A stretch of 64,000 bases of DNA from an uncultured Bacilli bacterium (GTDB lineage: Bacteria; Bacillota_I; Bacilli_A; RF39; UBA660): positions 5,783 through 69,782 of the forward strand of contig CANRBS010000001.1 of NCBI GenBank assembly GCA_947628895.1. Direction: 5' to 3'. The notes beneath the pieces were generated by a model that saw nothing but the letters and a program-made list of their open reading frames with translations, made no database searches and was not told the origin of the DNA. Made by a program: the position numbers and the translations under genes. Positions 1 through 60,082 of the stretch are shown piece after piece; positions within the stretch are counted from its first letter, which is position 1, and each line of letters starts with the position of its first letter.

Positions 1-230
1 TTTTTACCATCAACAAAGAATATTAATGTAGGTACACTCATAATTCTATATTTTAAAGCAAGATTTTCAAATTTATCTATATCTACTTTAATAATATCAA
101 TTTTATCTTCTAAGTTTTCTAAAACTGGTCCCATCATTTTACAAGGACCACACCATTCAGCATAAAAGTCTACTAAATGTTTTCCTTCTTTAACAAGTTC
201 ATCTAAATTATCTTTTTCTAAATATGTCAT
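1..230 (-). CDS. trxA: thioredoxin (partial; C-terminus lies outside the window)
   Basis: The reverse-complement translation reads MTYLEKDNLDELVKEGKHLVDFYAEWCGPCKMMGPVLENLEDKIDIIKVDIDKFENLALKYRIMSVPTLIFF and contains the WCGPCK active-site motif. The ATG at 230..228 overlaps the stop codon of the downstream gene. Confidence 0.8.
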   Translation of the reverse strand, partial: MTYLEKDNLDELVKEGKHLVDFYAEWCGPCKMMGPVLENLEDKIDIIKVDIDKFENLALKYRIMSVPTLIFFVDGK

Positions 231-901
231 TCAATTTTTCCTTTCTCTCTAAGTAAATTTAAATTTTCTTCAGTTATTATATCATATTTTAAGAATAACT
301 CAATTGCTTCTTTATTAAAGTTTTTACTATCATCTTTATAAGTTTCACTAAGTTTATATATTTCATCTATAACTACTCTTGTATCTTCTACAGCTTCACT
401 CATAACAGGTGTATTATCTAATATTTTATTAGCAAGAATAGATTCATCAATACCAGTTATTTTCATAAATGGTTGAGAGAATACAAAAAGTAAGATAAAC
501 GCGATTATATAGCTTTCAATAAATCCTACAACTCCTCCTAGTAACTTAGAAACAAAACCAAATACAACTGTAAGCTTTAATACTCCTTCAATAATACCAC
601 TTATTTTTAATAATATTCTAAGTATTAAATATAATACTGAAAATACTATAAAGAATGCTATTAACTCATATAATAATATATTTAAAATTGATACACCTTT
701 AAATATTCCATTGAAATTAAAGAATGGTAAATTTTTATATAAGAATGTTGAAAGTGGCACTCTTAAATGAAATGAAACAATTAATACTACTACTAAGCCT
801 ACAAGTAAAACTGTTTGTTTAATAAATCCTCTTCTAAATCCTGACATAACCCCTAGAATTAAAAATATTACAATAATTGCATCAAGTATACTTATTTTCA
901 T
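227..901 (-). CDS. CvpA-family membrane protein (colicin V production protein-like)
   Basis: The 224-aa protein has several TM helices and an acidic C-terminal tail. It matches CvpA in size and topology. Confidence 0.5.
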   Translation of the reverse strand: MKISILDAIIVIFLILGVMSGFRRGFIKQTVLLVGLVVVLIVSFHLRVPLSTFLYKNLPFFNFNGIFKGVSILNILLYELIAFFIVFSVLYLILRILLKISGIIEGVLKLTVVFGFVSKLLGGVVGFIESYIIAFILLFVFSQPFMKITGIDESILANKILDNTPVMSEAVEDTRVVIDEIYKLSETYKDDSKNFNKEAIELFLKYDIITEENLNLLREKGKIE

Positions 902-2394
902 TATTTTCCTCCTTCTAAATTAAGTATATATGGATAATCCATACTTCCATCTCCACTTATTACTTTTACGGTTTTTGAAATTGTGATTACTGGTCTTACA
1001 ACAGCCTCAGTTGATACTTTACTTTCAATAATTACATTATTATTTACTAAAAAATTATATGCGGCACTTCCATTATAATATGCAGGAGTAAGAGTCCAAT
1101 ATGAATCATTAAAGTTCAAAAAACTATCATCTTTAAATACATCAAATCCAGCATTTATAAGTTCATTTTTAGTAATTAAAGCAATTGGATAATTTAGTAC
1201 TTTACTACCATATTCACTATTTACTGTAAGTCTATCATTTATATTATGGCATTCATAACTAATTTTATCATTATTCATTTCATAATAACCTGTATTGTTA
1301 TTTGCAAATCCAAGAGTACCATAAAGTACTCTATTATATGTAAATTCTTTAGTTTTTCTATTACTACAATAAATTGTATCACTTGTAATATAATCTTTAT
1401 ATTCACTTAAATTCTCTTTAAAATAATTTTCTAAATAAGTTTTAATATCACTTGAAGATGTATTATTATGTTCAAGTTTATAATCAAGACTACTAACTGT
1501 TCCATACATAAAGCCAACATAAGCATTAGAATTAGATTTACTATTAAATACACTACTAAGAGATGAATCTATGCTACATACATCATTTTCATATTTACCA
1601 CTATATATAAGTCTTATTCCTCTATCCATTGTAGTTCTTATTATTTTATAACAATTATTTCCTAAAACTACGGTATTTTTTAAATCTTTACTTCCCCTAT
1701 AAAAATAAATAATTCCACCATTTATACTATTATTTGTATAATAAACACCACTATTATTTATATCATTTAAATCAATATTATTAATTGAATCTATAACACT
1801 ATTTTCAATAAGTTTTCCAAGTGAATCTTTAGTATAAATATCTTCACCAACATTAATATTAGAAGATGGTACTATATTTATATTTGAAGAAAAAGTTTTA
1901 TTCATATTATTACTTTGATCTTTATCAGTTTTAAGAAAAGTAATAATCATTTTATAAGAATGTGTAGATCCTTTTTTTAATTTTATATTGCTAGCTATTA
2001 ATTCATCACTTGTAGGAATTATACTTTCACTTCTACTAGCACCTAAACCATTTTCTTCATAAATAGAATAAACCAAATCATCTGGATTTGCAAAATTATT
2101 TACTACATTTTCAAGTTTTATATCATAATATATATCATAGTCACCTTTATTTTTAACTGTAAATGATTTCGTGATACTATCTCCAGTATAACCATCTACC
2201 ATAGTAACATTACTTGTATCTGTAAATACAACAGCTGCATTCCCATCAAATGTATTTATATTGATTTTATTACTTTCACCAAATACATTAACTGAAAAAT
2301 ATGCATAAGTACAAAATAGCATAAATATTGAGATTAATATAATTCCAATACTTGCAAGTAACATACTTAATTTATAATTATTCATAATTCTCAA
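901..2394 (-). CDS. N-terminally anchored or secreted Asn-rich protein with a TasA/camelysin-type (SipW-cognate-like) N-terminus and a conserved C-terminal RPVITIS motif
   Basis: The N-terminal TM segment is followed by TYAYFSVNVFGESNKININTFDG, which resembles T[FY]A[FY]FSD.E.S.NN.F.AGTLDL. The C-terminus is VRPVITISK. A paralogue lies at 49805..51106. Confidence 0.35.
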   Translation of the reverse strand: MRIMNNYKLSMLLASIGIILISIFMLFCTYAYFSVNVFGESNKININTFDGNAAVVFTDTSNVTMVDGYTGDSITKSFTVKNKGDYDIYYDIKLENVVNNFANPDDLVYSIYEENGLGASRSESIIPTSDELIASNIKLKKGSTHSYKMIITFLKTDKDQSNNMNKTFSSNINIVPSSNINVGEDIYTKDSLGKLIENSVIDSINNIDLNDINNSGVYYTNNSINGGIIYFYRGSKDLKNTVVLGNNCYKIIRTTMDRGIRLIYSGKYENDVCSIDSSLSSVFNSKSNSNAYVGFMYGTVSSLDYKLEHNNTSSSDIKTYLENYFKENLSEYKDYITSDTIYCSNRKTKEFTYNRVLYGTLGFANNNTGYYEMNNDKISYECHNINDRLTVNSEYGSKVLNYPIALITKNELINAGFDVFKDDSFLNFNDSYWTLTPAYYNGSAAYNFLVNNNVIIESKVSTEAVVRPVITISKTVKVISGDGSMDYPYILNLEGGK

Positions 2395-2533
2395 ATCCTT
2401 TATATATTATAAACTATTAGTTTTTTCTTATTCTAAAACCTATCATAATTATATAATTAATAAGTATTTTTTTCAATAAAAATTGAAATAATTACATTAA
2501 TTTGGTAAAATACTCGTGAAGGAGAAAAGAGTT

Positions 2534-3085
2534 ATGTTAAAGGAAAAAGATATACTTGATGAAAGAAAGTCAAAAATATTAAGGAAAAAAAGTGTTGATG
2601 TAACTTTTCCAATGAGCGAAGATGATATTGCTTTAATTAATGAAATGGTTATGTATTTAAGACTTAGCCAAGATGAAGAATATGCAAATAAAAACAATAT
2701 TAGAGCTGGTATGGGACTTTCTGCTGTACAACTTGGAAAATTAAAAAGATTTTTTGTTATTTCATATAAAAAAGATGATGGTACTTTTGAAGAATATAAA
2801 GTTGTTAATCCTAAAATAATATCTAATTCAACTGAATTAATATATGTAGAAGAAGGAGAAGGATGTTTAAGTGTAAATAGATATGTTGAAGGTATAGTTC
2901 CAAGATATGCAAGAGTTACTATTGAATATTATGATGAATTTGGAAATAAAAAAGAAGTTAGAGTTCGTGAAGAAATAGCTGTTGCCTTCCAACATGAAAT
3001 AGATCATTTAAATGGTATTTTGTTTTTAGATAGAATAGATCCAAAAGATCCATACAAAAATAAAGATAATATGAGAAGTATATAA
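2534..3085 (+). CDS. def: peptide deformylase
   Basis: The GMGLSAVQLG, EGCLS and QHEIDHLNG motifs are present. The RBS AAGGAG (2519..2524) lies 9 nt before the ATG at 2534; the ORF track begins at the upstream GTG. Confidence 0.9.
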   Translation: MLKEKDILDERKSKILRKKSVDVTFPMSEDDIALINEMVMYLRLSQDEEYANKNNIRAGMGLSAVQLGKLKRFFVISYKKDDGTFEEYKVVNPKIISNSTELIYVEEGEGCLSVNRYVEGIVPRYARVTIEYYDEFGNKKEVRVREEIAVAFQHEIDHLNGILFLDRIDPKDPYKNKDNMRSI

Positions 3086-3168
3086 AGTGTAAATGAATTA
3101 AAAATAAAAAAGTATTTGTTTACTTTTTTTTTATTTTACTTTATAATTAATATAGGTGAAATAATATT

Positions 3169-4080
3169 ATGGAAAAAGGATATTTAAAAAGGTTAATTTT
3201 TTGGGGTGTTATTTGGATTTTAGTTGTAGCTGCTGCTGCAAGTGGAATGTATATGTATTATAATGGATATGGTGAAAGTGGTAAAATAAGACAAAAATTA
3301 TTGCCAATAGTAAACCAATTTAATAATTTAGATTACATATTACAATTAAAAAATAATAATAATATTGAAGTAAAAGCTAAAATAGATCAAAATAAAATAG
3401 TTATTACTTATACAACAGTTGGAAGTGAATCAAAATTTGACTTTACTTATTCAAAAGAAAATGATATGGAAATACTTACAAATAAATATAATACAAGTGA
3501 TTCAGTTTCAGGTGAAATTATTTCAAGAGGAATGATTGATGCTGTATATATAGTAAATGCAGGTGAAGGAAGTTTATTTGATACATATCAAATTAATGAC
3601 TTTACTAAAACAACTATAGAACAAGGAGTAAATATTAAAACTGGTAACGATATAGAAATACAAATTAATTTAAATACTAATATATTAGAAAACCTACAAA
3701 ATGTTGATATAAATGATAACGATTTAACTGATTATATTTTAGAAAATGACTTAATTAATATGACAGAAGATTTAACAACTAAAAATAGATATGACATAAG
3801 TAAAAAAGCAATAAAAATAATTGTTATTAATGGAGCTGAGAATTATCAAATATATGCTGAAAATACTGATAGTGAAATAAATGATAATTTATATTTTTCA
3901 GTAATGAATATAATAAAATTATTAAATAATGATGTATATAAAACAATTGAAACAAATGAAGATAAATTAATCGCAAATAATAAAACATCAACATATGAAG
4001 TTGTTATAAATGCAGAGGTTGATATTGAAAATACATTCAATGAAGATAGTTCAATATTAGAAGTAATAATAAATAAATAA
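3169..4080 (+). CDS. hypothetical membrane-anchored protein
   Basis: The 303-aa ORF has one N-terminal TM helix (LIFWGVIWILVVAAAASGMY) and an Asn/Asp-rich extracytoplasmic part. An AGGTGA RBS precedes it. Confidence 0.5.
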   Translation: MEKGYLKRLIFWGVIWILVVAAAASGMYMYYNGYGESGKIRQKLLPIVNQFNNLDYILQLKNNNNIEVKAKIDQNKIVITYTTVGSESKFDFTYSKENDMEILTNKYNTSDSVSGEIISRGMIDAVYIVNAGEGSLFDTYQINDFTKTTIEQGVNIKTGNDIEIQINLNTNILENLQNVDINDNDLTDYILENDLINMTEDLTTKNRYDISKKAIKIIVINGAENYQIYAENTDSEINDNLYFSVMNIIKLLNNDVYKTIETNEDKLIANNKTSTYEVVINAEVDIENTFNEDSSILEVIINK

Positions 4081-7190: not shown

Positions 7191-7679
7191 GTGAATAGTC
7201 TTATTAAAAAAATATATATTAGAAACACTATTAAAAGTAGTTCAAAAGTTATTGAAGCAAAATTTATAAAAAAAGATGGAATAAAATATTATGTAGATGG
7301 CAAAAATGTGATATTAGATTATACAAAAAATGAATTAGAAATAGCAAAATGGTTGGTAAGTATATTAGGCGGAACAATATATTTATTACCAAGAATTAAT
7401 TATCCTGAAAATATAAAGACAGCAGATTATTTATGGAATAACGAATTTTGGGATTTGAAAGAAATTAATGGAAAAGGAAAAAATATTTTAGATAATAGAA
7501 TTAAAAATTATCAAAATCAATCAAATAATTTTATTTTAGTAATTAAAAATAATAAATTAAGCATAAAAAATATTGTACTTCAAATTAATAAAATTTATAA
7601 TTCTCCACATAGATTATGGGTAAATAAAATAATAATTATTAAAAATAGCAAATTATTAATGATAATAAAAAGAGATTGA
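7191..7679 (+). CDS. hypothetical protein with a possible PD-(D/E)xK nuclease-like core
   Basis: The 162-aa ORF uses a GTG start after an AGGAGGT RBS. The motif ...TADYLWNNEFWDLKEI (D...(D/E)xK) is present. Its 3' end lies inside the tandem repeat. Confidence 0.4.
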   Translation: MNSLIKKIYIRNTIKSSSKVIEAKFIKKDGIKYYVDGKNVILDYTKNELEIAKWLVSILGGTIYLLPRINYPENIKTADYLWNNEFWDLKEINGKGKNILDNRIKNYQNQSNNFILVIKNNKLSIKNIVLQINKIYNSPHRLWVNKIIIIKNSKLLMIIKRD

Positions 7680-7926
7680 CCCCAACCCAAGTGTGTCAGG
7701 ATAAATCTCATTAACTATAATATACAATAAATTATAAATTATGTCAATAGTAAAGTGATACTTTACTTTTACTTATAAATAAAATAATAATTATTAAAAA
7801 TAACAAATTATTAATGATAATAAAAATGAGATTGACCCCAACCCAAGTGTGTCAGGACCAATCTCATTAACTATAATATACAATAAATTATAAATTATGT
7901 CAATAGTAAAGTGATACTTTACTTTC
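7621..7926. repeat. tandem direct duplication, two units of about 155 bp at about 97% identity
   Basis: Unit 1 is 7621..7775 and unit 2 is 7776..7926. They differ by one 1-nt insertion and three substitutions. Each unit carries the GTAAAGT-GAT-ACTTTAC hairpin and an internal inverted repeat, AATGAGATT...AATCTCATT in unit 2. Confidence 0.85.
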
Positions 7927-8096
7927 TTCATATATATAGCATGACCACACATTTCTATAATTTCTGATTTGATAGATGTTTGTTCAATTAAATCCATAAT
8001 TTTATTAAATAATTCATTATCTTTTATATTATATATATTATCTTCTTTTTTATATTCAAGTCCTCTAATAGATCTTATCTCTATTCTCATAGTCAT
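7794..8096 (-). CDS. hypothetical small protein (the C-terminal third is encoded by the repeat)
   Basis: The 100-aa ORF runs into repeat unit 2. A 27-aa ORF with an AGGAGAG RBS lies immediately upstream (minus strand, about 8112..8195). Confidence 0.25.
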   Translation of the reverse strand: MTMRIEIRSIRGLEYKKEDNIYNIKDNELFNKIMDLIEQTSIKSEIIEMCGHAIYMKKVKYHFTIDIIYNLLYIIVNEIGPDTLGLGSISFLLSLIICYF

Positions 8097-8885: not shown

Positions 8886-8965
8886 ATTTATCACTATAGA
8901 AATTATACCACGGATTTAATAACTTATCTATTTATTTTTAAAAAGAAATATTATATAATAAATAT

Positions 8966-9184
8966 ATGAAAAAAATATTAATTGGTTTAATAAACTTATA
9001 TCAAATAACACCATTACATATTCATTCTTGTTGTAGATTTACTCCAACATGTAGTGAATATATGAAAGAATGTATAAATATATATGGTATTAAAGGTATA
9101 TTTAAAGGAATAAAAAGAATATTAAGGTGTCATCCTTTTGGAAAAATTGGATATGACCCAGTAATTAAGGGAGATGAATCATGA
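8966..9184 (+). CDS. yidD: membrane protein insertion efficiency factor YidD
   Basis: The 72-aa protein reads ...[33 protein letters not shown]...RCHPFG, which is the YidD/PF01809 pattern. Confidence 0.8.
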
Positions 9185-10038
9185 AAAAAATATTAATATG
9201 TTTAACTTGCATTTTTTTACTAAGTGCTTGTGAATGGAAAGAAGACTTTAGTGATACATATATTTACACTACTCTATATCCAATTGAATATGCTACTAAT
9301 GTTTTATATAGTGAATATGCTACAATACAAAATGTTTATCCAAATGGTGCTGATATTAACTATAAAATAACTGATAAAAGAAAAGAAACTTTTTCAAAAG
9401 CAGAAACATTTATATATTCTGGTGTAGCAAATGAAGCTAGTCTTGCTAAAGATGTAGTTAATTTAAATAAAAATATTCAATTAATAGATGCTACTAAATA
9501 TATACCTAGTAATTCTAAAATAGCAAGTGTATGGATAGATCCTTCAAATTATTTAAGACTTTGTAATAATATTAAATCTAATTTAATTAATTATACTGAT
9601 AATGTAAATATAAAAAAGAAAGTTGAAGAAAATTATAAAGAATTAAATGAAAAAATAAGTGAACTTGATGTTCAATTATATGATTTAGGTAAAAATGGAA
9701 ATTATAATACAATACTTACTACTAATAGTGCTCTTAACTATTTAACAAAATATAATATAAATGTTATATCACTTGATACAGATAATGAAGCTATTGATAA
9801 AGCATATTCAGATGCTAAAAAGCTAATAACTAGTAAAGATATTCAATATATTTATTATTTAGAAGGTGATAAACTTAATCAAAATCAAGAAAAATTAATT
9901 AGTGATAATTCACTAATTAAAGTTGAATTAAATGATATATTTTCTCTTACTGATAAAGAAAGAGAAGAAAATAAAGATTATTTAATAATAATGAATGAAA
10001 TAATAGAAAATTATAAAAAAGAACTATATAAAAATTAA
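9181..10038 (+). CDS. lipoprotein, a degenerate ZnuA/TroA-like solute-binding fold lacking metal-binding histidines
   Basis: The lipobox is LLSAC. The sequence [15 protein letters not shown]...[10 protein letters not shown]...[13 protein letters not shown] follows the ZnuA/AdcA pattern (VVTTFYP..EF...). The His ligands are replaced by N and Y. The gene overlaps yidD by 4 nt. Confidence 0.45.
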
Positions 10039-10056
10039 TAGAAAACTATTAATTTT

Positions 10057-11238
10057 TTATTTGTCTTTTATTAGTTTTTTAGTAATAATATTATTTATTT
10101 TATCATCATATCTTTTACTTATTATAATTTTATCATAATCATCTGATAAAATACTAAAATATTTAATTAAATTATTATATTCATCTGAAAACATACTTTC
10201 AAGTAAGTCTACATATTCATCATTATAACAAGATAATAAAAACCATTTAATAAATTCTATATTTGCATTTTCAAAAATATTTAACCCATTTTTTAAAATT
10301 ATATTTTCTCTTTTATATTTTATATCTTCACATGCAGATTTTATATCAATATTATTTTTATTACTATGATAAGATACTATTAATGTTAAAGCTTCTATTA
10401 ATGCTTCTTCTAATGCATATTGATATTTTAAAAAATAATTTGCTTTTTTTACATCATTATAATTATGTATATTTTTATTAGTGGCATATAAATTTATAAT
10501 TCCATAAATATCATTAATTGTATTTGATTTAAAATCTTGTAATATTTTAATTGGCATTATATCATATTCATCTAAATAATCTACTATTTTACAATATAAA
10601 TCTGTTGAATAATCAAATTTAATATCACTTATATTATATATTTTATATGAATTATCAATTTTATCATAAGTATATACTTGAATATAATCTTTCTTATTAA
10701 TAACTTTTAAAATAATTATATAATTATCTTTATAGCACTTATCATAATAATTATTTAAAATATTATCACATTCATCATATATTTTTTTATCTTTAGGTTT
10801 TAATGAATAATAATTTTTTAAATTTTCAAGATAAAATATATTATTTGCATTTTTTAAAATTAAATCTCTATTAGAATGAAGAGTTTCATGAATAATAGTT
10901 TCCCCAATATCTTTTATAATATTTTTTTTACTTATTTTATTTGAATTTTTTAAATGATTTTCAATATAATAAGCTAAAATAACTATTCTATTATTATTAG
11001 TTTTTATATAGTTATCTTCATAATAAGCTATATCTCTATTAGAATGTGCATTTAAACTACAATTATAATCTATTATAATATCAGTGTTATATAAATGATT
11101 AAATGCGGTTTTATTTATATTTAATAAATCAAAAAAATGTTTAAGTGAAAAGATTGCATATTCTCTTGCTGAATATACATAACTATATATAACTGCATCA
11201 GTATATTTAGTTTTATTTTCGCCTTCCACTTTTATCAT
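10057..11238 (-). CDS. cytoplasmic HExxH motif protein (putative zinc metallopeptidase-like), paralogue B
   Basis: The 393-aa protein has no signal peptide and contains the IIHETLHSNRD motif. It shares FNHLYN.DI, IIHE.LH.NRD.LLKN, DKKIY.EC and LEE.LIE blocks with 11255..12385. Confidence 0.5.
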   Translation of the reverse strand: MIKVEGENKTKYTDAVIYSYVYSAREYAIFSLKHFFDLLNINKTAFNHLYNTDIIIDYNCSLNAHSNRDIAYYEDNYIKTNNNRIVILAYYIENHLKNSNKISKKNIIKDIGETIIHETLHSNRDLILKNANNIFYLENLKNYYSLKPKDKKIYDECDNILNNYYDKCYKDNYIIILKVINKKDYIQVYTYDKIDNSYKIYNISDIKFDYSTDLYCKIVDYLDEYDIMPIKILQDFKSNTINDIYGIINLYATNKNIHNYNDVKKANYFLKYQYALEEALIEALTLIVSYHSNKNNIDIKSACEDIKYKRENIILKNGLNIFENANIEFIKWFLLSCYNDEYVDLLESMFSDEYNNLIKYFSILSDDYDKIIISKRYDDKINNIITKKLIKDK

Positions 11239-11254
11239 TTTTTTGCCTCATTAA

Positions 11255-12385
11255 TTATTTTAATCTTCTTTTAGCAATTTCGTCAATAATTATTTCATCA
11301 TTTAAAGAAATTTCAAAGTTATTAGAATATATTTTACTAACTAATTTTATAAATTTAGCATAATCATTTAAAAATATATTTTCAAGTTCATTTACTCTTT
11401 CATCTTGATATGATGATAAAAGAAATTTATTTATAAATTCTTCTTTGTATTTATAAAATATTTTAATACAATTTAGAAGTAAAACATTATTACTTTTAGA
11501 AATAATTTGATTGCAAAATCCATCTATATCTAAAAAGTCTTTATCTTTATGATAATCTATAATTGAAGTCATAATTTCAATTAATATTTCTTCTAATTCT
11601 GTTTGATAATTAATAAGCATATTAGCTTTTTTTATTTCATTTGTTTTATTGAATCTTCCATGTGGGGCATATATTCCTGTGATTTCATATACATAATCTT
11701 GATTATTATTATGATTAATAAATTCTTTTATAGGTATTATATTATTAGCTTTTATATAATTTATAATATTATTGTAAGAATTATTCATATTATTATAATT
11801 AATTAAATTAGATATATTATTTAATTTATATATACTAAAATAATTTTCTTCTTTATCATAAATATAAACAAGACTATATTCTTTATAATTTACAATTTTT
11901 AATACTTGTATCTTTTTATTTGAAATAGTATTATTTAAAGCGATTAAGCATTCATTATATATTTTTTTATCTTCTAAACTAAAATCACAATAATCTAAAT
12001 AATCAAGAATATTTAAATAATTAATTTCATTTTTTAATAATACATCTCTATTAGCATGTAATTTTTCATGAATAATAGTATATGCAATATCATCATAAGA
12101 TTCAAAATCATCTATAAATTCAGTATTTAATGAAATACCATTTCTATTTGGATTATATTCACAAGTAGCTTCATAATGTGCTTCTTCATCTTTTTTACAT
12201 TCACAAGTATCATAATTTACTCTAATATCAATATTATATAAATGATTAAATAATGTATAGTCATAACCTAATAATTCTATAAAATGTGCAATTCTTTTAT
12301 TTGCTATAATATTTGATTTTCTTAATTTATATCTAATACTATTAATTTCTTTTTTATCTTTCTTACTTGAAATAACTTTTATCAT
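11255..12385 (-). CDS. cytoplasmic HExxH motif protein (putative zinc metallopeptidase-like), paralogue A
   Basis: The 376-aa protein contains the IIHEKLHANRD motif. It is a tandem paralogue of 10057..11238. Confidence 0.5.
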   Translation of the reverse strand: MIKVISSKKDKKEINSIRYKLRKSNIIANKRIAHFIELLGYDYTLFNHLYNIDIRVNYDTCECKKDEEAHYEATCEYNPNRNGISLNTEFIDDFESYDDIAYTIIHEKLHANRDVLLKNEINYLNILDYLDYCDFSLEDKKIYNECLIALNNTISNKKIQVLKIVNYKEYSLVYIYDKEENYFSIYKLNNISNLINYNNMNNSYNNIINYIKANNIIPIKEFINHNNNQDYVYEITGIYAPHGRFNKTNEIKKANMLINYQTELEEILIEIMTSIIDYHKDKDFLDIDGFCNQIISKSNNVLLLNCIKIFYKYKEEFINKFLLSSYQDERVNELENIFLNDYAKFIKLVSKIYSNNFEISLNDEIIIDEIAKRRLK

Positions 12386-12466
12386 AAAACCCCCTTATAA
12401 ATTATAGTACATTATACCATATCACAAGCAAAATGTCAAAAAAATAGATACTTTTTGTAGTATCTA

Positions 12467-13486
12467 CTATAGGGTATCATAATCAAATAATGTTTTTTGT
12501 TCATTTATTTTAAATTCTCTATATGTTTTTTCTGTTACTATTCTACCTCTTGATGTTCTTTTAACATATCCTTCTTGAAGTAAAAATGGTTCAATTACAT
12601 CTTCTATAGTTGTTGCTTCTTCACCAATAGAGGATGCAATTGATTCAATACCAACAGGTCCTCCATTGAATTTCTTAATTATACTCATTAAGTATTCTAC
12701 ATCTGTACTATCAAGGCCTGATGAATTAATTTTAAGTCTATCTAATGATTTTTTTACTATTTCTAAATTTATTTTATCAATTCCTTCAACTAAAGCAAAA
12801 TCACTAACTCTTTTTAATAATCTATTTGCAATTCTCGGAGTTTTTCTTGATCTAATAGCTATTTCATGTGCAGCATTTTCATCAATTTTAGCTCCAATTA
12901 CTCTTGCAGTTCTCTCAACTATCTCTGTAAGTTCTTCATCTGTATAAAATTCAAGTTTACTAACTATTCCAAATCTATCTCTAAGTGGACTAGATAAGTC
13001 ACCTGCTCTAGTTGTAGCACCAACTAAAGTAAATGGTGGTAAGTCTATTTTAATACTTCTACTTTGTCCTTCACTACCTATTATAATATCAAGTTTAAAG
13101 TCTTCCATAGCACTATATAATATTTCTTCAATATATCTTGGTATTCTATGTATTTCATCTATAAATAATACATCATTAGGTTCAAGAGTAGATAGTATTG
13201 CGGCAAGATCTCCACTTTTTTCAATAGTAGGACCACTAGCTGTTTTAATATTGCTTCCAAGTTCATTTGCTATTATATGAGCAAGAGTTGTTTTTCCAAG
13301 TCCAGGAGGACCATATAATAATACATGATCTAGGTTAGTATTTCTCATCTTAGCAGCAGTAACAAATACTTTAATATTTTCTTTTACATCATTTTGACCA
13401 ATATACTCATCAAATGAATCTGGTCTTATATTCTTTTCAAATGTATCAGTTTCTAGTTCATGATTTGTTACAACTCTTTCATCCAT
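12467..13486 (-). CDS. ruvB: Holliday junction branch migration ATPase RuvB
   Basis: The [14 protein letters not shown] Walker A motif is present. The protein is AAA+ domain throughout and 339 aa long. Confidence 0.95.
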
Positions 13487-14054
13487 AATATTTCTCCTCT
13501 ATATATTTATATATTTGTTCCCAATTATCAACTCTATTAAATTTTTTTTCATCATGATTATAAGCATTAGTAAATAAAAGTACATCTATTCCTTCATTTG
13601 CTACATCAGCACAATGAGATTCTTTATCATCTATAAATAAAGTTACATTATTTTCTTTACATTCATCTTCTTTAGTACCAGTATTTACAAATACTTTATC
13701 ATATTTTATTCCATGTCTATCTAAATAATCTACTGTAAGTTTATATGGATCTTTTAAATATTTATCTTTTCTAAATGAAATAATTATTATTTTATTTCCT
13801 TCATCATGAAGTTTATTAATTATTTCCTGAGCTCCTTCTTTAATCTCTGCATGATCCATTATATATTCAAGTCTATCTTTAAAGAATTTACCTTTCATAT
13901 CTTTTTGCCATCCCATCATTTCAGTAAATTCATAAGCGGTTTCATCTTTAACCCCACTTCCACCTAGTACTTCTCTATCATATCTATCTGCTTCTTTAAT
14001 AATTAATTCATTAGTAGAGCATATAGTATCATCCATATCAATCCCAATTACCAT
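13479..14054 (-). CDS. HAD-superfamily 5'(3')-deoxyribonucleotidase-like hydrolase
   Basis: The HAD DxDxT motif is present in IGIDMDDTI. The protein is 191 aa with an NT5C/YorS-like profile. It sits between ruvA and ruvB. Confidence 0.6.
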
Positions 14055-14061
14055 AATAACC

Positions 14062-14610
14062 TCACTTTAATAATAATTTTAATGCTTCTTTTATTTGTGT
14101 TTCAATAGGCATGCTTGTATCAACTTTAGCAACAATATTTTTAATATCATTACTTTTATATCCAAGTGCTTCTAGTGCAAGTGTTAATTCATCATTTACT
14201 ATTGTATTATTTTCACTCATAACAAGTTTACCTTTTAAATCTAATATGATTTGTCTTGCTAGTTTTTCACCTATTTTAGGTATTTTCTTTAAATATAATA
14301 TATTTTCTCTATCTACAGCATCTACTATTCCATTAATTGATGATGTTGCAAGAATTGTTAAAGCCATTCTAGGGCCAAGTCCTTTAACATCTATTAGTTT
14401 TAAAAATAAATCTCTTTCATCTTCACTTATAAAACCATATAGTGTATTTTCATCTTCTCTTACATGATTATATAAATAAACCATTTCTTCTTCATCTAGT
14501 TTAAATCTATATGGATTTGGTGTATATACTCTATATCCTACACCACTTACATCAACTACAACATAATTTGCAAACTGTTTTGTTATTTTACCTTTTAAAT
14601 ATTCATACAT
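14062..14610 (-). CDS. ruvA: Holliday junction DNA helicase RuvA
   Basis: The N-terminus reads MYEYLKGKI...VVVDVSGVGYRV. A helix-hairpin-helix domain and a C-terminal domain III follow. Confidence 0.9.
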   Translation of the reverse strand: MYEYLKGKITKQFANYVVVDVSGVGYRVYTPNPYRFKLDEEEMVYLYNHVREDENTLYGFISEDERDLFLKLIDVKGLGPRMALTILATSSINGIVDAVDRENILYLKKIPKIGEKLARQIILDLKGKLVMSENNTIVNDELTLALEALGYKSNDIKNIVAKVDTSMPIETQIKEALKLLLK

Positions 14611-14659
14611 AATTTTTACCTCTATATAAAATTATAACACTCATACTTTAATATGTAAA

Positions 14660-15283
14660 TTAATGAGAATTATAAACCATATCTTTATATTTCTTACTAA
14701 TTCTAAATAAAGCATTTTCTACATATTTTTTATCTTTATCTAAAAGATTAGCTACTTCTTTATTATTAAGTCCACTAAGTTTTAATTCAAAAATATTTTT
14801 TTCATTTTTACTTAATTTTGATTTAACTTTTTCAAGTATTTCTTTTGTTTCTTCTTCTTTAAATATTAAATTATCGGGATCATTATTTGTATCATTTAAT
14901 ATTTCATAATAATTATAATTAGTATCATTTACTATTTTATCTAAAGGAAAAGAATTATTTAATATTCTATTTTTCATTCTAAAAGAATTTCTCATAGCAG
15001 ATATTAATGTACTTTTAATACAAGCATTAGCATAAGTATAAAAAGTTACATCTTTTTTTTCATCAAATGTATTAATAGCATGTATAAGTCCAATTAAACC
15101 TTCTTGATAAAGATCAGAGATTTCCATACCAATTACATTATATTCTTTTAAATATTCTTTTAATGTAGCTAATATACAATTCTTATATTTTTCTACTAAA
15201 ATACTTGCAGCTTCTTCATTTTGTTCTGCACATAAATAAACAAGTTCATTATCATTTAATGCTTTATAATCCATATTATTCAC
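14660..15283 (-). CDS. sigH: sigma-70 family sigma factor, SigH-like
   Basis: Region 2 reads DLYQEGLIGLIHAINTFD. A C-terminal region 4 HTH is present. The gene lies immediately downstream of rlmB, as in the B. subtilis yacO-sigH locus. Confidence 0.65.
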   Translation of the reverse strand: MNNMDYKALNDNELVYLCAEQNEEAASILVEKYKNCILATLKEYLKEYNVIGMEISDLYQEGLIGLIHAINTFDEKKDVTFYTYANACIKSTLISAMRNSFRMKNRILNNSFPLDKIVNDTNYNYYEILNDTNNDPDNLIFKEEETKEILEKVKSKLSKNEKNIFELKLSGLNNKEVANLLDKDKKYVENALFRISKKYKDMVYNSH

Positions 15284-15982
15284 CTATTTATACTTCATTA
15301 TTTCATATATTAGTATTCCACTTGCTACACTTGCATTTAAAGAATTTATTTTTCCTTTCATAGGAAGAGATATAATTTCATCACAAGAAGATGATACTAT
15401 TTGTTTAAGACCCCGCCCTTCACTTCCAATTACAAGACAAGTTTTACCATCATACTTAATACTTTGATAATCTTTACCTAAAGCATCAGTTCCATATACC
15501 CAATATCCTAAATCTTTTAATTTACGAATAGTATTTGATAAATTAACTACTTCTACTATTTTTACATAAGATAATGCTCCACTTGATGTTTTATATACAG
15601 TACTATTAACACTAACACTTCTATTTTTTGGAATAATTATATAATCTACTCCTGCACATTCACATGTACGAATAATTGCTCCAAAATTATGTGGATCTTC
15701 TATTGAATCTAACATAACAATAAAATTAGATTTATTATCTTTTTCTATTTCACTAAAATCTAAATAATTAAATTCTTCTATATCTAATGCAATACCTTGA
15801 TTTGTACTATTACCACACATTTTATCAAGTTTATTTTTATCTATATGAAATTTTTTTAAATTTCTTTTATTTATTTTATTTAAAATACTTTCATCTTTAA
15901 AATTATTATCTAAAAATACTTTATAAATTTTAATATTTTTATTTAGTATTTCATTTACTACATTTCTTCCGTATACTAGCAT
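15284..15982 (-). CDS. rlmB: 23S rRNA (guanosine-2'-O)-methyltransferase RlmB (TrmH family)
   Basis: The N-terminus MLVYGRNVVNEIL matches the SpoU/TrmH family, and a C-terminal SPOUT domain follows (GSEGRGL...SLNASVASGILIYE). The start was set at the second ATG, which follows a GGAGGG RBS. Confidence 0.8.
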   Translation of the reverse strand: MLVYGRNVVNEILNKNIKIYKVFLDNNFKDESILNKINKRNLKKFHIDKNKLDKMCGNSTNQGIALDIEEFNYLDFSEIEKDNKSNFIVMLDSIEDPHNFGAIIRTCECAGVDYIIIPKNRSVSVNSTVYKTSSGALSYVKIVEVVNLSNTIRKLKDLGYWVYGTDALGKDYQSIKYDGKTCLVIGSEGRGLKQIVSSSCDEIISLPMKGKINSLNASVASGILIYEIMKYK

Positions 15983-16094
15983 AACACCCTCCATAACTTA
16001 ATAATAATTCTATCAAAACAAATAATAAATTTCAATAATTAAAATCATTCATAATAAAAACTAAATATATCAAAAGATACATTTAGTTTATTAA

Positions 16095-16907
16095 TTAAAA
16101 ATTAATTTCTTTTTCTACTGTATTATATAAATCATCTAATTTTGGCTTTCTCATTTGACTAAATATTATATATAATCCAATTATTATCATTAATATACTT
16201 ACTACTTGTGCTACTTTGATATTATAAAACATTAAACTATCTGTTCTAAACCATTCAATTACTAATCTAATAGCTCCATACCAGAATAAATAAAATCCTG
16301 TTATTTGTCCATTTTTTGTATATTTTCTTCTTCTTATAATTAGCATTATTATAAATCCAATTAAGCATGCAAGTGATTCAAAATAGAACATTGGTAAATG
16401 ATAATTACCATTTATATACATATTATCAATTATAAATTGAGGTATTATTTTCATATTTACAAGTGTATCATATGTTACAGCTGTGCCATAAGCTTCTCCA
16501 TTAAAGAAATTTCCCCATCTACCAATTGCTTGTGCAATTAATACTGCTGGTACAATTATATCTAACATTTTCATTAAATTAACTTTATATTTCTTACAAT
16601 ATCTAACTATAACTAATAAACCTAATATAATAGCACCATGTATTGCAAGACCACCATGCCATATCATAAATATTTCTTTAATATTACTTCCATAATAATC
16701 CCAATTAAATAATACATAATAAATTCTCGCACCAATTATACCAAATATAATAGTCCAAAACATCATGTTAAATACAAATTCTTTTTTAATTTGATATCTT
16801 CTACTTTCAGCCATTATTAATGTATAAGCAATAATAACTGCAGCTAAAATAAGAACACTATACCATCTTACTTCAAAATTTCCTATTGTTACTAAAACTG
16901 GATCCAT
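16095..16907 (-). CDS. lgt: prolipoprotein diacylglyceryl transferase
   Basis: The HGGLAIHG and GRWGNFFNGEAYG signature blocks are present. Confidence 0.9.
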   Translation of the reverse strand: MDPVLVTIGNFEVRWYSVLILAAVIIAYTLIMAESRRYQIKKEFVFNMMFWTIIFGIIGARIYYVLFNWDYYGSNIKEIFMIWHGGLAIHGAIILGLLVIVRYCKKYKVNLMKMLDIIVPAVLIAQAIGRWGNFFNGEAYGTAVTYDTLVNMKIIPQFIIDNMYINGNYHLPMFYFESLACLIGFIIMLIIRRRKYTKNGQITGFYLFWYGAIRLVIEWFRTDSLMFYNIKVAQVVSILMIIIGLYIIFSQMRKPKLDDLYNTVEKEINF

Positions 16908-22240: not shown

Positions 22241-22416
22241 CGTATATTCCTCCTTTTGCTTTATTCAATCATACATAATATGCAGCGGATTTGAGCAATA
22301 TGATAATATCATAAAATATTTAATTTATCAAGTGTTTTATTGAAATTTCATATATTTATTAATTGACATATAAAGACATAAATGTTATAATACAAAGCCA
22401 TGTTTTAGGAGGGGTT

Positions 22417-23649
22417 ATGAAAAAAAGAATTCTTGATTCAAGAGAAATTAGAGAAATTTTAAATATTGATGCTTCAGATAAATCTGATGAAGAAAAAGCA
22501 AAATTATTAAATGATTTATGTAATATAAATGATATAGAAAATACTATTGAATATAATAAATTTAAAAAAATTGAAGGTAAAAATACAATAAAAGCATATG
22601 AAATATATAAATCATTTGTTGATAAAGGTTTATTATTTAAATATGAAGCAAAATATAATTGTGATTTTAATGAAATGAAAAAAAGATTAGATAAATTAAT
22701 TATTATAAATGATGCTTTATTAGATGAAACTAAAAGTGATTATCAAAAAGCATATGTATTTTTATCTTGTTATAATAATATAAGATCATTTAAAGAATCT
22801 TACGGATTATTTATTAATAGAGGATTATTATATTGTAAAACTCCTGATGAAAGATTGAATTATGCTAGTGATGTTTTATTAAATTTTAAAAATATTTTAA
22901 ATTCTATTATTAGTTTAGATGAAAGAGGAATTATTAAAGCTGTAAAATATGTTATAAAATGTGAAAATTATAATAAATATTATAACTATGCTAAATTTGT
23001 TATAGAAAGTTATATTAATTCTAATACTAGTCATAAGAAAAAAGAATTTTTAAATAGTTTAGGAATTAATGAAGACATACTTAATTATTGTATTAAAATA
23101 ATAGAAGAATTAGATTTAGACTTGTATAATAAATATTTAGCTAAAAAAGAAGAAAATTATAAAAAAACAATTCTTAGAAATGAAAAAATATTACTTAATT
23201 TAGAAGAAGGAATTGAAACTGGATATATGCCTAATGGTGAAAAGTTTGATATATTATTATTTATTAAAAAAGTACCATTTAAAAATCATCCATATTTTTA
23301 TGATCATATGAAAAAATTTATTCTTCGTTTTATACCTAGTTGTTATAGTACAATTATTAATTATATTTATCAAAATAAATTACAAGATTTAAATCATATT
23401 GAATTAATAGATGAAAATGAGTTATATAATACAAAAGAAATAGTAAGAAATCATGTAATGACTAGAGAAGAAAAAGAAATAATAATTAATTATTTAAAAT
23501 TAAGAAGAATACCAATTATTCCAAAAACTTATACAATAGCAAGAAATATGTATTTTAATAATGAATTAGATTATTCAAATATTAATAGTGATACTATTAA
23601 AGAAAAAAAAGAATTAAATTTTACTTTAATTCCAACAATAAAACAATAA
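22417..23649 (+). CDS. hypothetical cytoplasmic protein
   Basis: The ORF encodes 410 aa from the ATG that follows a GGAGGGG RBS. No motif is recognisable. Confidence 0.5.
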   Translation: MKKRILDSREIREILNIDASDKSDEEKAKLLNDLCNINDIENTIEYNKFKKIEGKNTIKAYEIYKSFVDKGLLFKYEAKYNCDFNEMKKRLDKLIIINDALLDETKSDYQKAYVFLSCYNNIRSFKESYGLFINRGLLYCKTPDERLNYASDVLLNFKNILNSIISLDERGIIKAVKYVIKCENYNKYYNYAKFVIESYINSNTSHKKKEFLNSLGINEDILNYCIKIIEELDLDLYNKYLAKKEENYKKTILRNEKILLNLEEGIETGYMPNGEKFDILLFIKKVPFKNHPYFYDHMKKFILRFIPSCYSTIINYIYQNKLQDLNHIELIDENELYNTKEIVRNHVMTREEKEIIINYLKLRRIPIIPKTYTIARNMYFNNELDYSNINSDTIKEKKELNFTLIPTIKQ

Positions 23650-28753: not shown

Positions 28754-29476
28754 TTAATGTAAATTTAACATCTTAATAGATTTTAATATATTATCATCAA
28801 CTTCTTCTAATTGTTTTTCATATTTATCATTTGAAGATACATTTATACCTTCATATCTAATAGCATATTTACTAGATAAACTTTCTATATAATCACAAAT
28901 TATTCCTTGTTTTATTATTATTGAATAAATTAGATCATTTATTTCTTTTAAACATAAAATTTCATCTATTCTTTCAAGTTTTTTAATTGCAATTCTAATT
29001 AATTTTAATAATGATTTTAGATTATATATTTCATCTATACTTTCTTTTATTTTATCTTCATATTCTTGATATAATTTATATCCTTCATCTTGAAGAAATA
29101 GTAATTTTAATTTATATAATTTAACACTTAATTTTAAAATTTTTAAATTAAATACATTAATATGTCTAGAAAATGATGCTGTTTTATAATTCTTTTTAGT
29201 AGCATTAAAACTAGCTTTAATTATTTCTATTTCTTCTTTTCTTGCTTTAATAGCATAATCAATTGAAGAAGAATTATCAAACATTTCTTTTATCATATTT
29301 TTTAATTCATCTGGTATTTCATTTAATTCATCATTTTCAGATGTATCAAGAGTATTAGTAAATATTTTTATAAATAATTCATCTAAATCTTGAGATAATT
29401 TTTCTTCATCTTGATCTTTATTATTTCTTAATATTTCAATTAAATATTTCTTTAATTCATCACTACTAATATTCAT
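28754..29476 (-). CDS. hypothetical acidic coiled-coil protein downstream of mutS
   Basis: The 240-aa protein has no recognisable motif. It occupies the position usually taken by mutL. Confidence 0.45.
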   Translation of the reverse strand: MNISSDELKKYLIEILRNNKDQDEEKLSQDLDELFIKIFTNTLDTSENDELNEIPDELKNMIKEMFDNSSSIDYAIKARKEEIEIIKASFNATKKNYKTASFSRHINVFNLKILKLSVKLYKLKLLFLQDEGYKLYQEYEDKIKESIDEIYNLKSLLKLIRIAIKKLERIDEILCLKEINDLIYSIIIKQGIICDYIESLSSKYAIRYEGINVSSNDKYEKQLEEVDDNILKSIKMLNLH

Positions 29477-49804: not shown

Positions 49805-51106
49805 TTATTCTTTATTTAATTTCCAATATTCATCAAAATATATATTTACATTATTACTTATAGTAATTACTGGTCTTATATATAAACTACTTTTATATGT
49901 ATTATTATAAATATCATGTAGTTTTGAATTATTAATTTCATTATTATTTATACTAAGTATTCCAAATATAGCACTTTCATCTGTTGCATCAATATGTCTT
50001 GTAGATAAATAATATGGACTATAATATTTATTATTTTTTTCTATAAATAATTCATAATAAATGTCATTTATAAAATTATTTTTAGTAATTTTATTTATAT
50101 TATTTGTTTCATGTAATGTTATAGAATTTACTATTTTAAAATTTGAAGTTATATAATTATTACCTTCACTATTAAGAAGTACACCATTTGTATGAATATT
50201 ATTTATAATACTATTTTTTTCATCTTCATATATAGTTGGAATATATATACTATCCATATTATATGTTTTAATATTATCATTATATTCTATTAGTTTAGTA
50301 GTAGTATATTTATGAATATCATCTAAATTTAAATTTCTAGCATTAGTACTATATTTTGTAGAATACAATGAATTACAAATATCATTTAAAATATATACAG
50401 CATTATTATATCCATTAGATCCTCCAAGTAACATATTATTTGATAGTAAAATTGCTTCTTCAGCAATTAAATCAATAGTTCCATCATTATTAATATTTAA
50501 GATTCTATAATTTGTTTTTATTGCTGATAATTCTAAATCACTGTTATTTTGTGTAAATTCTTTTTGTAAATTATATTTTTTATTTTCATCTATTTTATAT
50601 TCAAAATAATCACCAACAGATATTTTATCTTTAATTTCTTTATAATTAAGTGGTGTTTTTATATCATCTAATGTATTATTAATATAACCACCTACAACTA
50701 AAAATTTACAATTTATTGAATCACTTGAATTATTAGATATAAATAATTTTATTTTAATTTTACTATTTCCATCTATCGTACCATCCGTATTATTTTCATA
50801 AATATATAAATTCAAATTAGTATTTTCTAAATAAAATAATTTATAAAATGTATTAATTTTATTTAATGATTCTATTTCTAATTCAATTAAACTATTTCCA
50901 GGTGAAACTGTTATTTCATTAGTATTAGTATTATTTATTTTAATACTATAATTTAATTTATCTATATGCATTTCTACAGCTCTGTGGTTATTTGAATTAT
51001 ATATAAAATTAGAATATGATATTCCAAATGAAAAACATACTACAATAAGTAATATTACTAAAACTACTACATTCTTTTTTAAAAATTTAATATATTTTTC
51101 TTTCAT
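49805..51106 (-). CDS. N-terminally anchored Asn-rich surface protein, paralogue of 901..2394 (C-terminal RPVITIS motif)
   Basis: An N-terminal TM helix is followed by SYSNFIYNSNN. The C-terminus reads YIRPVITISNN. The protein is 433 aa. Confidence 0.35.
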   Translation of the reverse strand: MKEKYIKFLKKNVVVLVILLIVVCFSFGISYSNFIYNSNNHRAVEMHIDKLNYSIKINNTNTNEITVSPGNSLIELEIESLNKINTFYKLFYLENTNLNLYIYENNTDGTIDGNSKIKIKLFISNNSSDSINCKFLVVGGYINNTLDDIKTPLNYKEIKDKISVGDYFEYKIDENKKYNLQKEFTQNNSDLELSAIKTNYRILNINNDGTIDLIAEEAILLSNNMLLGGSNGYNNAVYILNDICNSLYSTKYSTNARNLNLDDIHKYTTTKLIEYNDNIKTYNMDSIYIPTIYEDEKNSIINNIHTNGVLLNSEGNNYITSNFKIVNSITLHETNNINKITKNNFINDIYYELFIEKNNKYYSPYYLSTRHIDATDESAIFGILSINNNEINNSKLHDIYNNTYKSSLYIRPVITISNNVNIYFDEYWKLNKE

Positions 51107-59866: not shown

Positions 59867-60082
59867 GAGGCACTTCAATATTTTTACATTTAAAAATCTA
59901 CATTATGTATAACATATATGTAGACTATTTTAATCAAAATGTAGGAGGAAAGACTTGCTAACCTTTCATCTCTTTTGACCATTAAGGTGTGTGGACGCAA
60001 GATATATTTTTCCACCTCTCCTACAAAAAATATTATATCAATTTTTCTTATTTTGTCAATTTTAATTATAAATTTATTCATT

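Follow-up and report, generated by a model that had tools for sequence, protein, structure and literature searches.

What are the two adjacent genes that lie between a lipoprotein gene and ruvB in an uncultured Bacilli bacterium (RF39, UBA660), and how did they come to stand there? The question was addressed on a stretch of 64 000 nucleotides (nt) of contig CANRBS010000001.1 (GenBank assembly GCA_947628895.1, positions 5783 to 69 782 of the forward strand), hereafter called the window and numbered from its first letter. A preliminary description had presented the genes, here named A and B, as divergent paralogues with an HExxH motif, inserted into a housekeeping context. In the reading that we favour and hold to be fairly probable, A and B encode soluble cytoplasmic zinc metallohydrolases of the gluzincin type, most likely peptidases, which belong to an unnamed family and are tandem duplicates at an ancestral position beside the ruv genes.

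Two open reading frames (ORFs) of 393 and 376 amino acids (aa) were present next to each other on the minus strand, as first described (Table 1). In the order of transcription, B comes first and A second. The two proteins aligned over 369 columns by BLASTP with 35% identity (E 9e-45); because of this E value, their paralogy is far beyond chance. The paralogy proposed in the preliminary description was thus confirmed, with an identity slightly higher than its figure of about 30%. All five motif blocks that it had quoted as shared were found in both proteins. An HExxH motif was also found in both, at residues 117–121 of A and 106–110 of B rather than at about residue 125. The signal peptide was indeed missing: no hydrophobic N-terminal or membrane segment was found in either protein, the maximum Kyte–Doolittle mean over 19 residues being 0.86 for A and 0.75 for B. 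Both are hydrophilic and mildly acidic, with predicted isoelectric points (pI) of 6.1 (A) and 5.5 (B) and a family median of 4.9. By these predictions, A and B are soluble and carry no export signal.

The extreme amino-acid composition remarked on earlier was borne out. Among the 55 ORFs of the window, A had the lowest GC content (16.1%) and B the fourth lowest (16.9%; median 24.1%), and the residues F, Y, M, I, N and K (FYMINK) made up 52–54% of the two proteins against an ORF median of 40%. The window as a whole has 23.7% G+C, is 91% coding and uses the standard genetic code. An alternative code was ruled out: six of the 55 ORFs end in TGA, among them NT5C and ruvA, which have the same lengths as their orthologues. 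When the window was searched with the family profile, A and B were the only two copies.

Neither protein matched a family above threshold in Pfam, NCBIfam, PADLOC or PHROGs, in agreement with the earlier view of an uncharacterised family. Pfam also gave nothing above threshold for 75 long members, 35 short members or the family consensus. Word-indexed searches of 5.8 billion proteins returned only about six close relatives of A and B. These came from rabbit-gut ('Lapin') metagenomes and from two metagenome-assembled genomes (MAGs) deposited as 'uncultured Bacilli bacterium'. A further search of this kind with a deep family profile gave four proteins only, and a related-locus search with a shallow alignment found again only the two MAGs already known. 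An exhaustive HMMER search was then performed on 1.84 billion cluster representatives with a profile built from the close relatives. It retrieved 154 representatives at E<=1e-3, 106 of them at E<=1e-10, mostly of 350–410 aa. All 154 were of metagenome origin, and every family locus that was fetched had 18–26% G+C. Cluster look-up of ten members gave none that was named in any source. The family is real, rare and unnamed.

Conservation was analysed on 75 full-length members that are only about 20–30% identical to A, whose numbering is used here. H117, E118, H121 and R124 were invariant (75 of 75). E277, E278 and Y354 were each found in 74 members, and E282 in 66, with Asp in another five. F35, I85, F333 and Y342 were present in at least 90% of the members; N123, Y191, W332, S336 and Y338, like E282, were strongly conserved too. 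Beyond this set, the HExxH motif was present in nearly all of the 150 representatives that span the region. The resulting signature, HExxH-x-N-R ... Q-x3-E-E-x3-E ... W-F-x2-S-x-Y-x3-Y ... Y, matches no named family. Decay of HExxH in homologues had been put forward as an argument against a peptidase; with both histidines and the glutamate kept in every full-length member, this argument fails. A third zinc ligand was sought in the same alignment. No conserved His was found downstream of HExxH among the 75 members; the conserved downstream residues are glutamates, and the candidate is the helix with E277 and E278.

A structural model of A was calculated with AlphaFold2. From the 75-sequence alignment it reached a predicted local distance difference test score (pLDDT) of 91.7 and a predicted template modelling score of 0.88; an alignment of seven sequences gave a pLDDT of 77 only. 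In the better model, the N-terminal part is made of a short strand, a long helix (14–38) and a short helix (43–50). Three strands (53–57, 71–74 and 84–88), a short helix (89–97) and the HExxH helix (104–123) follow, as assigned by DSSP. Mean pLDDT of the 10-residue blocks around HExxH was 96–98. The HExxH helix is followed by helices 134–144 and 148–168, a beta-rich module (about 171–255), a long helix (260–293) that carries the EE motif and a helical C-terminal bundle. Some 45 members of the family are complete but short (227–310 aa). These correspond to the long forms without residues ~131–255 (hhalign probability 100%), and in the shortest of them the EE motif stands 27–34 residues past HExxH, which is the classical gluzincin spacing.

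In gluzincins, a backing helix, a roughly three-stranded beta-sheet and an active-site helix are followed by a downstream glutamate helix that gives the third metal ligand (PMC6414381). The model of A has the N-terminal part of this order (backing helix, three strands, active-site helix), the likeness concerning the order of the elements. As expected of a zincin or gluzincin, the conserved HExxH lies on a predicted alpha-helix. The likeness to thermolysin-like enzymes comprises the HExxH helix, the long helix and three strands before it and a Glu-bearing helix after it. The EE spacing of the minimal members is comparable with that of the minimal gluzincins ('minigluzincins', related to M48 and M56). 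The third-ligand motif of thermolysin consists of a Glu and an Asp spaced as E278 and E282 are in A (E278-x3-E282). The residue three positions after E282 was Ala, Ser or Thr in all 75 members (46, 19 and 10, respectively), and three positions after E278 the family consensus (LEEALTE) has Thr and both A and B have Ile. The small residue after E282 would fit the 'ExxA' pattern of gluzincins, depending on which Glu is the ligand. In contrast to gluzincins, A and B have about 125 extra residues inserted between the two catalytic helices and, after this, a helical tail of about 100 residues; no sequence or Foldseek match to a solved gluzincin was obtained.

From these elements a mechanism can be proposed. 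Zinc would be held by H117 and H121 of the active-site helix and by a glutamate of the E277-E278-x3-E282 helix, and E118 would be the general base that activates water. R124, Y354 and Y342 are candidates for transition-state stabilisation or substrate binding; a conserved Tyr and Arg are what the family offers as possible counterparts of the transition-state helpers of gluzincins. The insert between the catalytic helices (residues ~131–255, with the beta-rich module) probably shapes the access to the cleft. Since A and B are soluble proteins without export signals, intracellular peptides or proteins are the likely substrates.

Several results set limits to this assignment. Every sequence-level link to a named family was below threshold, and most sub-threshold Pfam matches centre on the motif helix. 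When the sequences in PDB were searched with three profiles and one short form, all matches were at chance level (NCAM, PUT3, and Spartan at E ~0.6). Both models were compared with PDB by Foldseek, and the better model also with BFVD; no match was below E 0.07. With the confident model, the best match had E 0.1 and a template modelling score of ~0.1 in PDB and E 0.07 in BFVD; no significant relative was found in either. Similarity of fold to a solved zincin was therefore not detected in these searches.

The sub-threshold Pfam matches that recurred were exclusively to zinc-peptidase families. The most recurrent and longest were to DUF4344 (PF14247, 'putative metallopeptidase') and DUF7844 (PF25226). 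The family consensus matched DUF4344 with 19.0 bits (E 1.3e-3) and DUF7844 with E 2.5e-4, over ~75–85 residues ending at HExxH in both cases. DUF4344 was also matched by five individual members (13.7–15.5 bits in the reported cases), the lowest E being 3.7e-5, for a short form. Neither the consensus nor the members reached its gathering threshold of 29.6 bits; over both families the scores were ~14–21 bits against cut-offs of 29.6 and 27. The N-terminal subdomain through HExxH aligns to profile positions ~15–105. The alignment is limited to this N-terminal third; the Glu helix and the C-terminal domain of the A/B family lie outside it. DUF4344 and DUF7844 add no functional information because both are themselves uncharacterised, and a literature search on them gave passing mentions only. 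Other sub-threshold matches of individual members were to Peptidase_M76, SprT-like, DUF2268, DUF5700, M30, Aspzincin_M35 and Tox-MPTase3.

The origin of the pair was examined through its neighbours in related loci (given below by their L numbers). In the window, yidD and a gene for a ZnuA-type lipoprotein lie on one side of the pair and ruvB, an NT5C-type gene and ruvA on the other, in accordance with the first description of these neighbours. The tandem pairing, whose conservation was to be checked, is kept in four related lineages. Throughout the rabbit-gut clade the pair and the ZnuA-like lipoprotein gene converge, and the pair lies directly downstream of ruvB wherever the upstream sequence is intact (L005–L007 and L009). 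In L001 (MAG GCA_947629235.1), the pair and the lipoprotein gene are kept and a DDE transposase replaces the ruvB side. This transposase (DDE_Tnp_1/DUF772) is encoded at 104–1501 of L001, on the minus strand.

Distant relatives, 25–35% identical to A and B, have the order ruvA, NT5C, ruvB, family gene, convergent ZnuA, yidD, rnc and SMC. The family gene occupies the ruvB–ZnuA position as a single copy in L023, L017/L018 and L025. In L017, an unrelated 272-aa gene for a membrane-anchored protein stands between ruvB and the family gene. This gene and a 397-aa gene after rnc were tested as diverged members and do not belong to the family. In the neighbour-joining tree of the family, the A clade and the B clade are sisters. 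The pair had been described as an insertion that interrupts a housekeeping context, a view contradicted by the single gene found at the same position in the distant relatives. Because of this identical position, the family locus is taken as ancestral and the pair as a local duplication; together with the sister A and B clades, the shared synteny places a tandem duplication in the rabbit-gut ancestor. The A/B pair is a tandem duplication specific to the rabbit-gut clade. In the history that we propose, an ancestor would have had one family copy directly downstream of ruvA-NT5C-ruvB, later duplicated in tandem in this clade. A foreign insertion was ruled out by the conserved synteny and by other native ORFs of equally low GC. 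The low GC of the pair fits weak constraint under AT-biased mutation and not a foreign origin.

Other subfamilies were found in unrelated housekeeping contexts: the L027 member adjoins yabG, veg and ksgA, the L029 member adjoins adh_short and VanY genes, the L020 member precedes an rpoD-like gene, and the L016 member follows a gene that was judged endonuclease-IV-like by eye. The proximity to ruvB is phylogenetic inertia in a single lineage. Three tandem members, one partial and two of 365 and 377 aa, were present in L026 (positions 1–3002), from the unrelated metagenome SRR8436538. This triplet is an independent tandem expansion of the family.

Expression signals were sought around the pair (Table 1); the promoter, ribosome-binding-site and hairpin calls are consensus or folding predictions. 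The promoter predicted before B is the sole 12/12 match within 8900–16200. A G+C-rich terminator scan did not detect the hairpin that follows ruvB. The hairpin located where A and the ZnuA-like gene converge folds with −8.8 kcal/mol on the minus strand (z −4.9) and −7.8 kcal/mol on the plus strand (z −4.4). L001 retains a hairpin and a promoter upstream of the pair, and its promoter element (TTGACT ... TACAAT) is near-identical. The spacer between ruvB and the family gene is only 16–28 nt in L005, L009 and L023, and therefore read-through from the ruv operon is implied there. In the window genome the pair would have gained its own consensus promoter, from which B and A are probably transcribed as a bicistron.

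Table 1. Coordinates of genes A and B, of their motif codons and of the predicted expression signals in the window.
Feature	Position	Strand	Evidence and remarks
Gene B	11255-12385	minus	ORF, 376 aa; upstream paralogue, fast-evolving copy; family hidden Markov model (HMM) E 1.4e-71
Gene A	10057-11238	minus	ORF, 393 aa; downstream, more conserved paralogue; family HMM E 1.8e-88
HEKLH codons (B residues 106-110)	12056-12070	minus	Putative zinc-binding/catalytic motif, read from sequence
HETLH codons (A residues 117-121)	10876-10890	minus	Followed by invariant R124 (HExxH-x-N-R); near end of predicted helix 104-123
EEILIE codons (B residues 265-270)	11576-11593	minus	Counterpart in B of the EEALIE motif of A
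EEALIE codons (A residues 277-282)	10393-10410	minus	Putative glutamate helix with candidate third metal ligand; within predicted helix 260-293
Hairpin with U7 directly after ruvB stop, intrinsic-terminator-like	12443-12468	minus	Folding -9.6 kcal/mol, z -2.7 against shuffles
Sigma-70-type promoter upstream of B, TTGACA-17-TATAAT, extended -10 TG	12411-12439	minus	Consensus match only
Putative ribosome-binding site of B, AAGGGGG	12390-12396	minus	Read from sequence
Putative ribosome-binding site of A, TGAGG	11246-11250	minus	Within 16-nt spacer from B to A; read from sequence
AT-rich hairpin between convergent ends of A and ZnuA-like gene, bidirectional-terminator-like	10030-10057	both	U-rich tract after each

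The position beside ruvB raises the alternative of a DNA-repair-linked protease like SprT, Spartan or Wss1, co-expressed with the RuvAB genes. The family gene indeed adjoins these genes in one lineage, on the same strand and at the short distance just given for L005, L009 and L023, and the distant member of L016 overlaps the end of its endonuclease-IV-like neighbour. The HExxH helices are also alike (TIIHEMIHA in the family, TLLHEMIHA in Spartan), weak SprT-like Pfam matches recur at this helix, and Spartan was among the PDB matches at E ~0.6. The SprT-like (PF10263) matches extend over ~25 residues only, with 10.9–17.6 bits against a threshold of 25.6 bits. In SprT, Spartan and Wss1, the third ligand is a downstream His; in the A/B family no such His is conserved and glutamates are conserved instead. 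The acidic pI of the proteins is ill-suited to DNA binding. The linkage to ruvB belongs to a single syntenic lineage and is lost in the other subfamilies, and in the window the pair is separated from ruvB by the terminator-like hairpin and has its own predicted promoter. A repair-linked role was considered quite improbable.

The two copies have evolved at different rates. Between the window and L005, amino-acid identity was 96.5% for RuvB, 91.8% for RuvA, 90.7% for Rnc, 88.4% for ZnuA and 86.9% for NT5C, against 64.3% for A and 44.2% for B. B orthologues were 42–52% identical where flanking proteins were 87–97% identical, and A orthologues 64–65%. Between L005 and L009, the flanking proteins were 97.4–100%, A 94.9% and B 63.1% identical. 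In these near-identical strains, nucleotide identity was 94–100% on both flanks and fell to 53–87% exactly within B, with a synonymous divergence (dS) of 0.32, ~2.7 times that of the flanks. Ratios of nonsynonymous to synonymous divergence (dN/dS) were calculated for all pairs by the Nei–Gojobori method. They were 0.01–0.18 for the flanking genes, 0.15 (close pair) and 0.40–0.46 (distant pairs) for A and 0.67–0.70 for B. In the L005 and L009 strains, B had a dN/dS of about 0.7 and the flanks 0.01–0.16. The divergence of B extended to every predicted domain, and two acidic loops were in addition prone to indels. The catalytic-type residues were kept in all eight A and B copies of the four lineages. 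Evolution after the duplication is asymmetric, A being moderately constrained and B fast-evolving with its active-site residues kept.

The ORFs of A and B were intact in all lineages except on the L007 contig (~3x coverage), where a 5-bp deletion (AGTGC) in A relative to L005 causes a frameshift (positions 2311–3490). Copy A is split there into called ORFs of 158 and 247 aa. This may be a natural loss of A in one strain or, alternatively, an error of the assembly.

These rates could also be read as those of weakly constrained, lineage-specific scaffolds, in which the metal at HExxH is structural or regulatory without proteolysis, or in which B is drifting to loss of function. Such a reading would account for the very low GC and high FYMINK content of the pair, for dN/dS values of 0.4–0.7, for the frameshifting deletion in A of one strain and for the lack of any fold or family match in the searches. 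It agrees poorly with the pattern of conservation: roughly twelve positions, among them the H, E, H, R, EE and Y residues, are fixed in an active-site-like pattern among proteins of 20–30% identity, and all eight copies of the four lineages keep them. The general-base Glu of HExxH is needless for mere metal binding, yet it is invariant, and the only disrupted ORF comes from the contig of low coverage. We regard weakly constrained scaffolds as an unlikely explanation.

The sharp boundaries of the divergence island at B (53–87% inside against 94–100% on the flanks in L005 and L009) suggested, in turn, a conflict gene. The pair, or at least B, would then be a phage-defence protease, an anti-phage or anti-competitor protease or a toxin, with A as conserved partner and B in an arms race. 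The dN/dS of ~0.7 and the raised dS of B point in the same direction, as do the independent recurrence of tandem multiplication, with three copies in L026, and the presence 2.4 kb away, in a variable spot, of an ORF with a CdiA_C toxin domain. The defence pair evoked in the preliminary description was not borne out: no PADLOC match (E up to 10), no PHROGs match and no defence neighbours were found, and tblastn with protein A and with the family consensus as queries found nothing among 50,697 phage and 72,556 plasmid records. The locus is chromosomal, syntenic over a deep divergence and surrounded by housekeeping genes. No immunity-like or sensor partner gene was seen beside the pair. The dN/dS of B is below 1, and its divergence is even across the domains and not concentrated on one surface, as relaxed constraint predicts. 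A conflict gene is thus judged improbable. In a related form of this idea, B would be an intracellular zinc protease under diversifying or balancing selection, its very divergent alleles persisting in one species at a fixed locus of the core genome because B recognises, or is the target of, a fast-changing partner, e.g. phage proteins; we consider this, too, to be a doubtful proposition.

A regulatory protease of the ImmA/IrrE type (M78-like), cleaving a repressor or an anti-sigma factor under stress, was also weighed. In its favour, A and B are cytoplasmic HExxH proteins with a downstream Glu, and the pair lies near DNA-repair genes and a sigma-factor gene (14660–15283), the L020 member preceding an rpoD-like gene. 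No Peptidase_M78 match was obtained in any Pfam scan at any threshold used, and no HTH/Xre-type gene was adjacent in ~10 distinct contexts. This explanation appears very unlikely. The gluzincin-type zinc metallohydrolase, most likely a peptidase, remains the reading that we prefer for A and B.

Other features of the window were recorded. The NT5C/HAD-type 5'-nucleotidase gene (13479–14054, minus strand) lies between ruvA and ruvB, with an 8-nt overlap with the latter. The ruvA-NT5C-ruvB order, an unusual three-gene ruv operon, is kept in every relative with the locus (L005, L009, L017 and L023). The ZnuA-type lipoprotein gene (9181–10038, plus strand; lipobox LLSAC) shares 4 nt with yidD (8966–9184, plus strand), and neither a permease nor an ATPase gene of an ABC transporter adjoins it. 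The putative zinc-enzyme gene always faces it in convergent orientation; this pairing of zinc-related genes is conserved and may be a coincidence.

A 162-aa ORF at 7191–7679 (plus strand) encodes a C-terminal toxin domain of the CdiA type (PF18451, above threshold with E 6.4e-15) without an upstream delivery domain. It sits between SMC and rnc, where gene content differs in every relative: a 125-aa ORF and an Rce1-like gene were found in L001, unknown genes of 397 and 197 aa in L018 and nothing in L023. Beside it, a 100-aa ORF (7794–8096, minus strand) has no Pfam match and could be an immunity gene. Three low-GC ORFs, at 49805–51106 (minus strand, 433 aa), 22363–23649 (plus strand, 428 aa) and 28754–29476 (minus strand, 240 aa), were without a Pfam match at E<=1e-3 and are further lineage-specific orphans of the window. 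The sole Rfam match in the window was a skipping-rope RNA (RF02924) at 59940–60025 (minus strand), with 53.4 bits against a gathering score of 36.7. No tRNA gene was found in the whole 64 kb.

The practical gain of this work is modest: a family definition and catalytic-site predictions that can be used for annotation and for the choice of structure targets. Unnamed zincin-like families are not rare; the orphan fold and the hypervariable paralogue make this one concrete and testable. If the gluzincin reading is true, an unnamed family, absent from Pfam, NCBIfam and PDB, would be added to the zincin metalloproteases. It would combine a confident predicted structure without a detectable solved relative with a large, unusual insertion between the catalytic helices, and it would be confined to uncultured, extremely AT-rich gut bacteria. 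Should B be a protease under diversifying or balancing selection, A and B would form a conflict module based on proteases, hitherto unrecognised, in uncultured AT-rich gut Firmicutes, and its zincin fold would have no solved relative. The pair is a clean natural example of asymmetric evolution after a tandem duplication, and B is a sharply bounded hypervariable island in an almost identical region of the core genome, which can be tested by population metagenomics.

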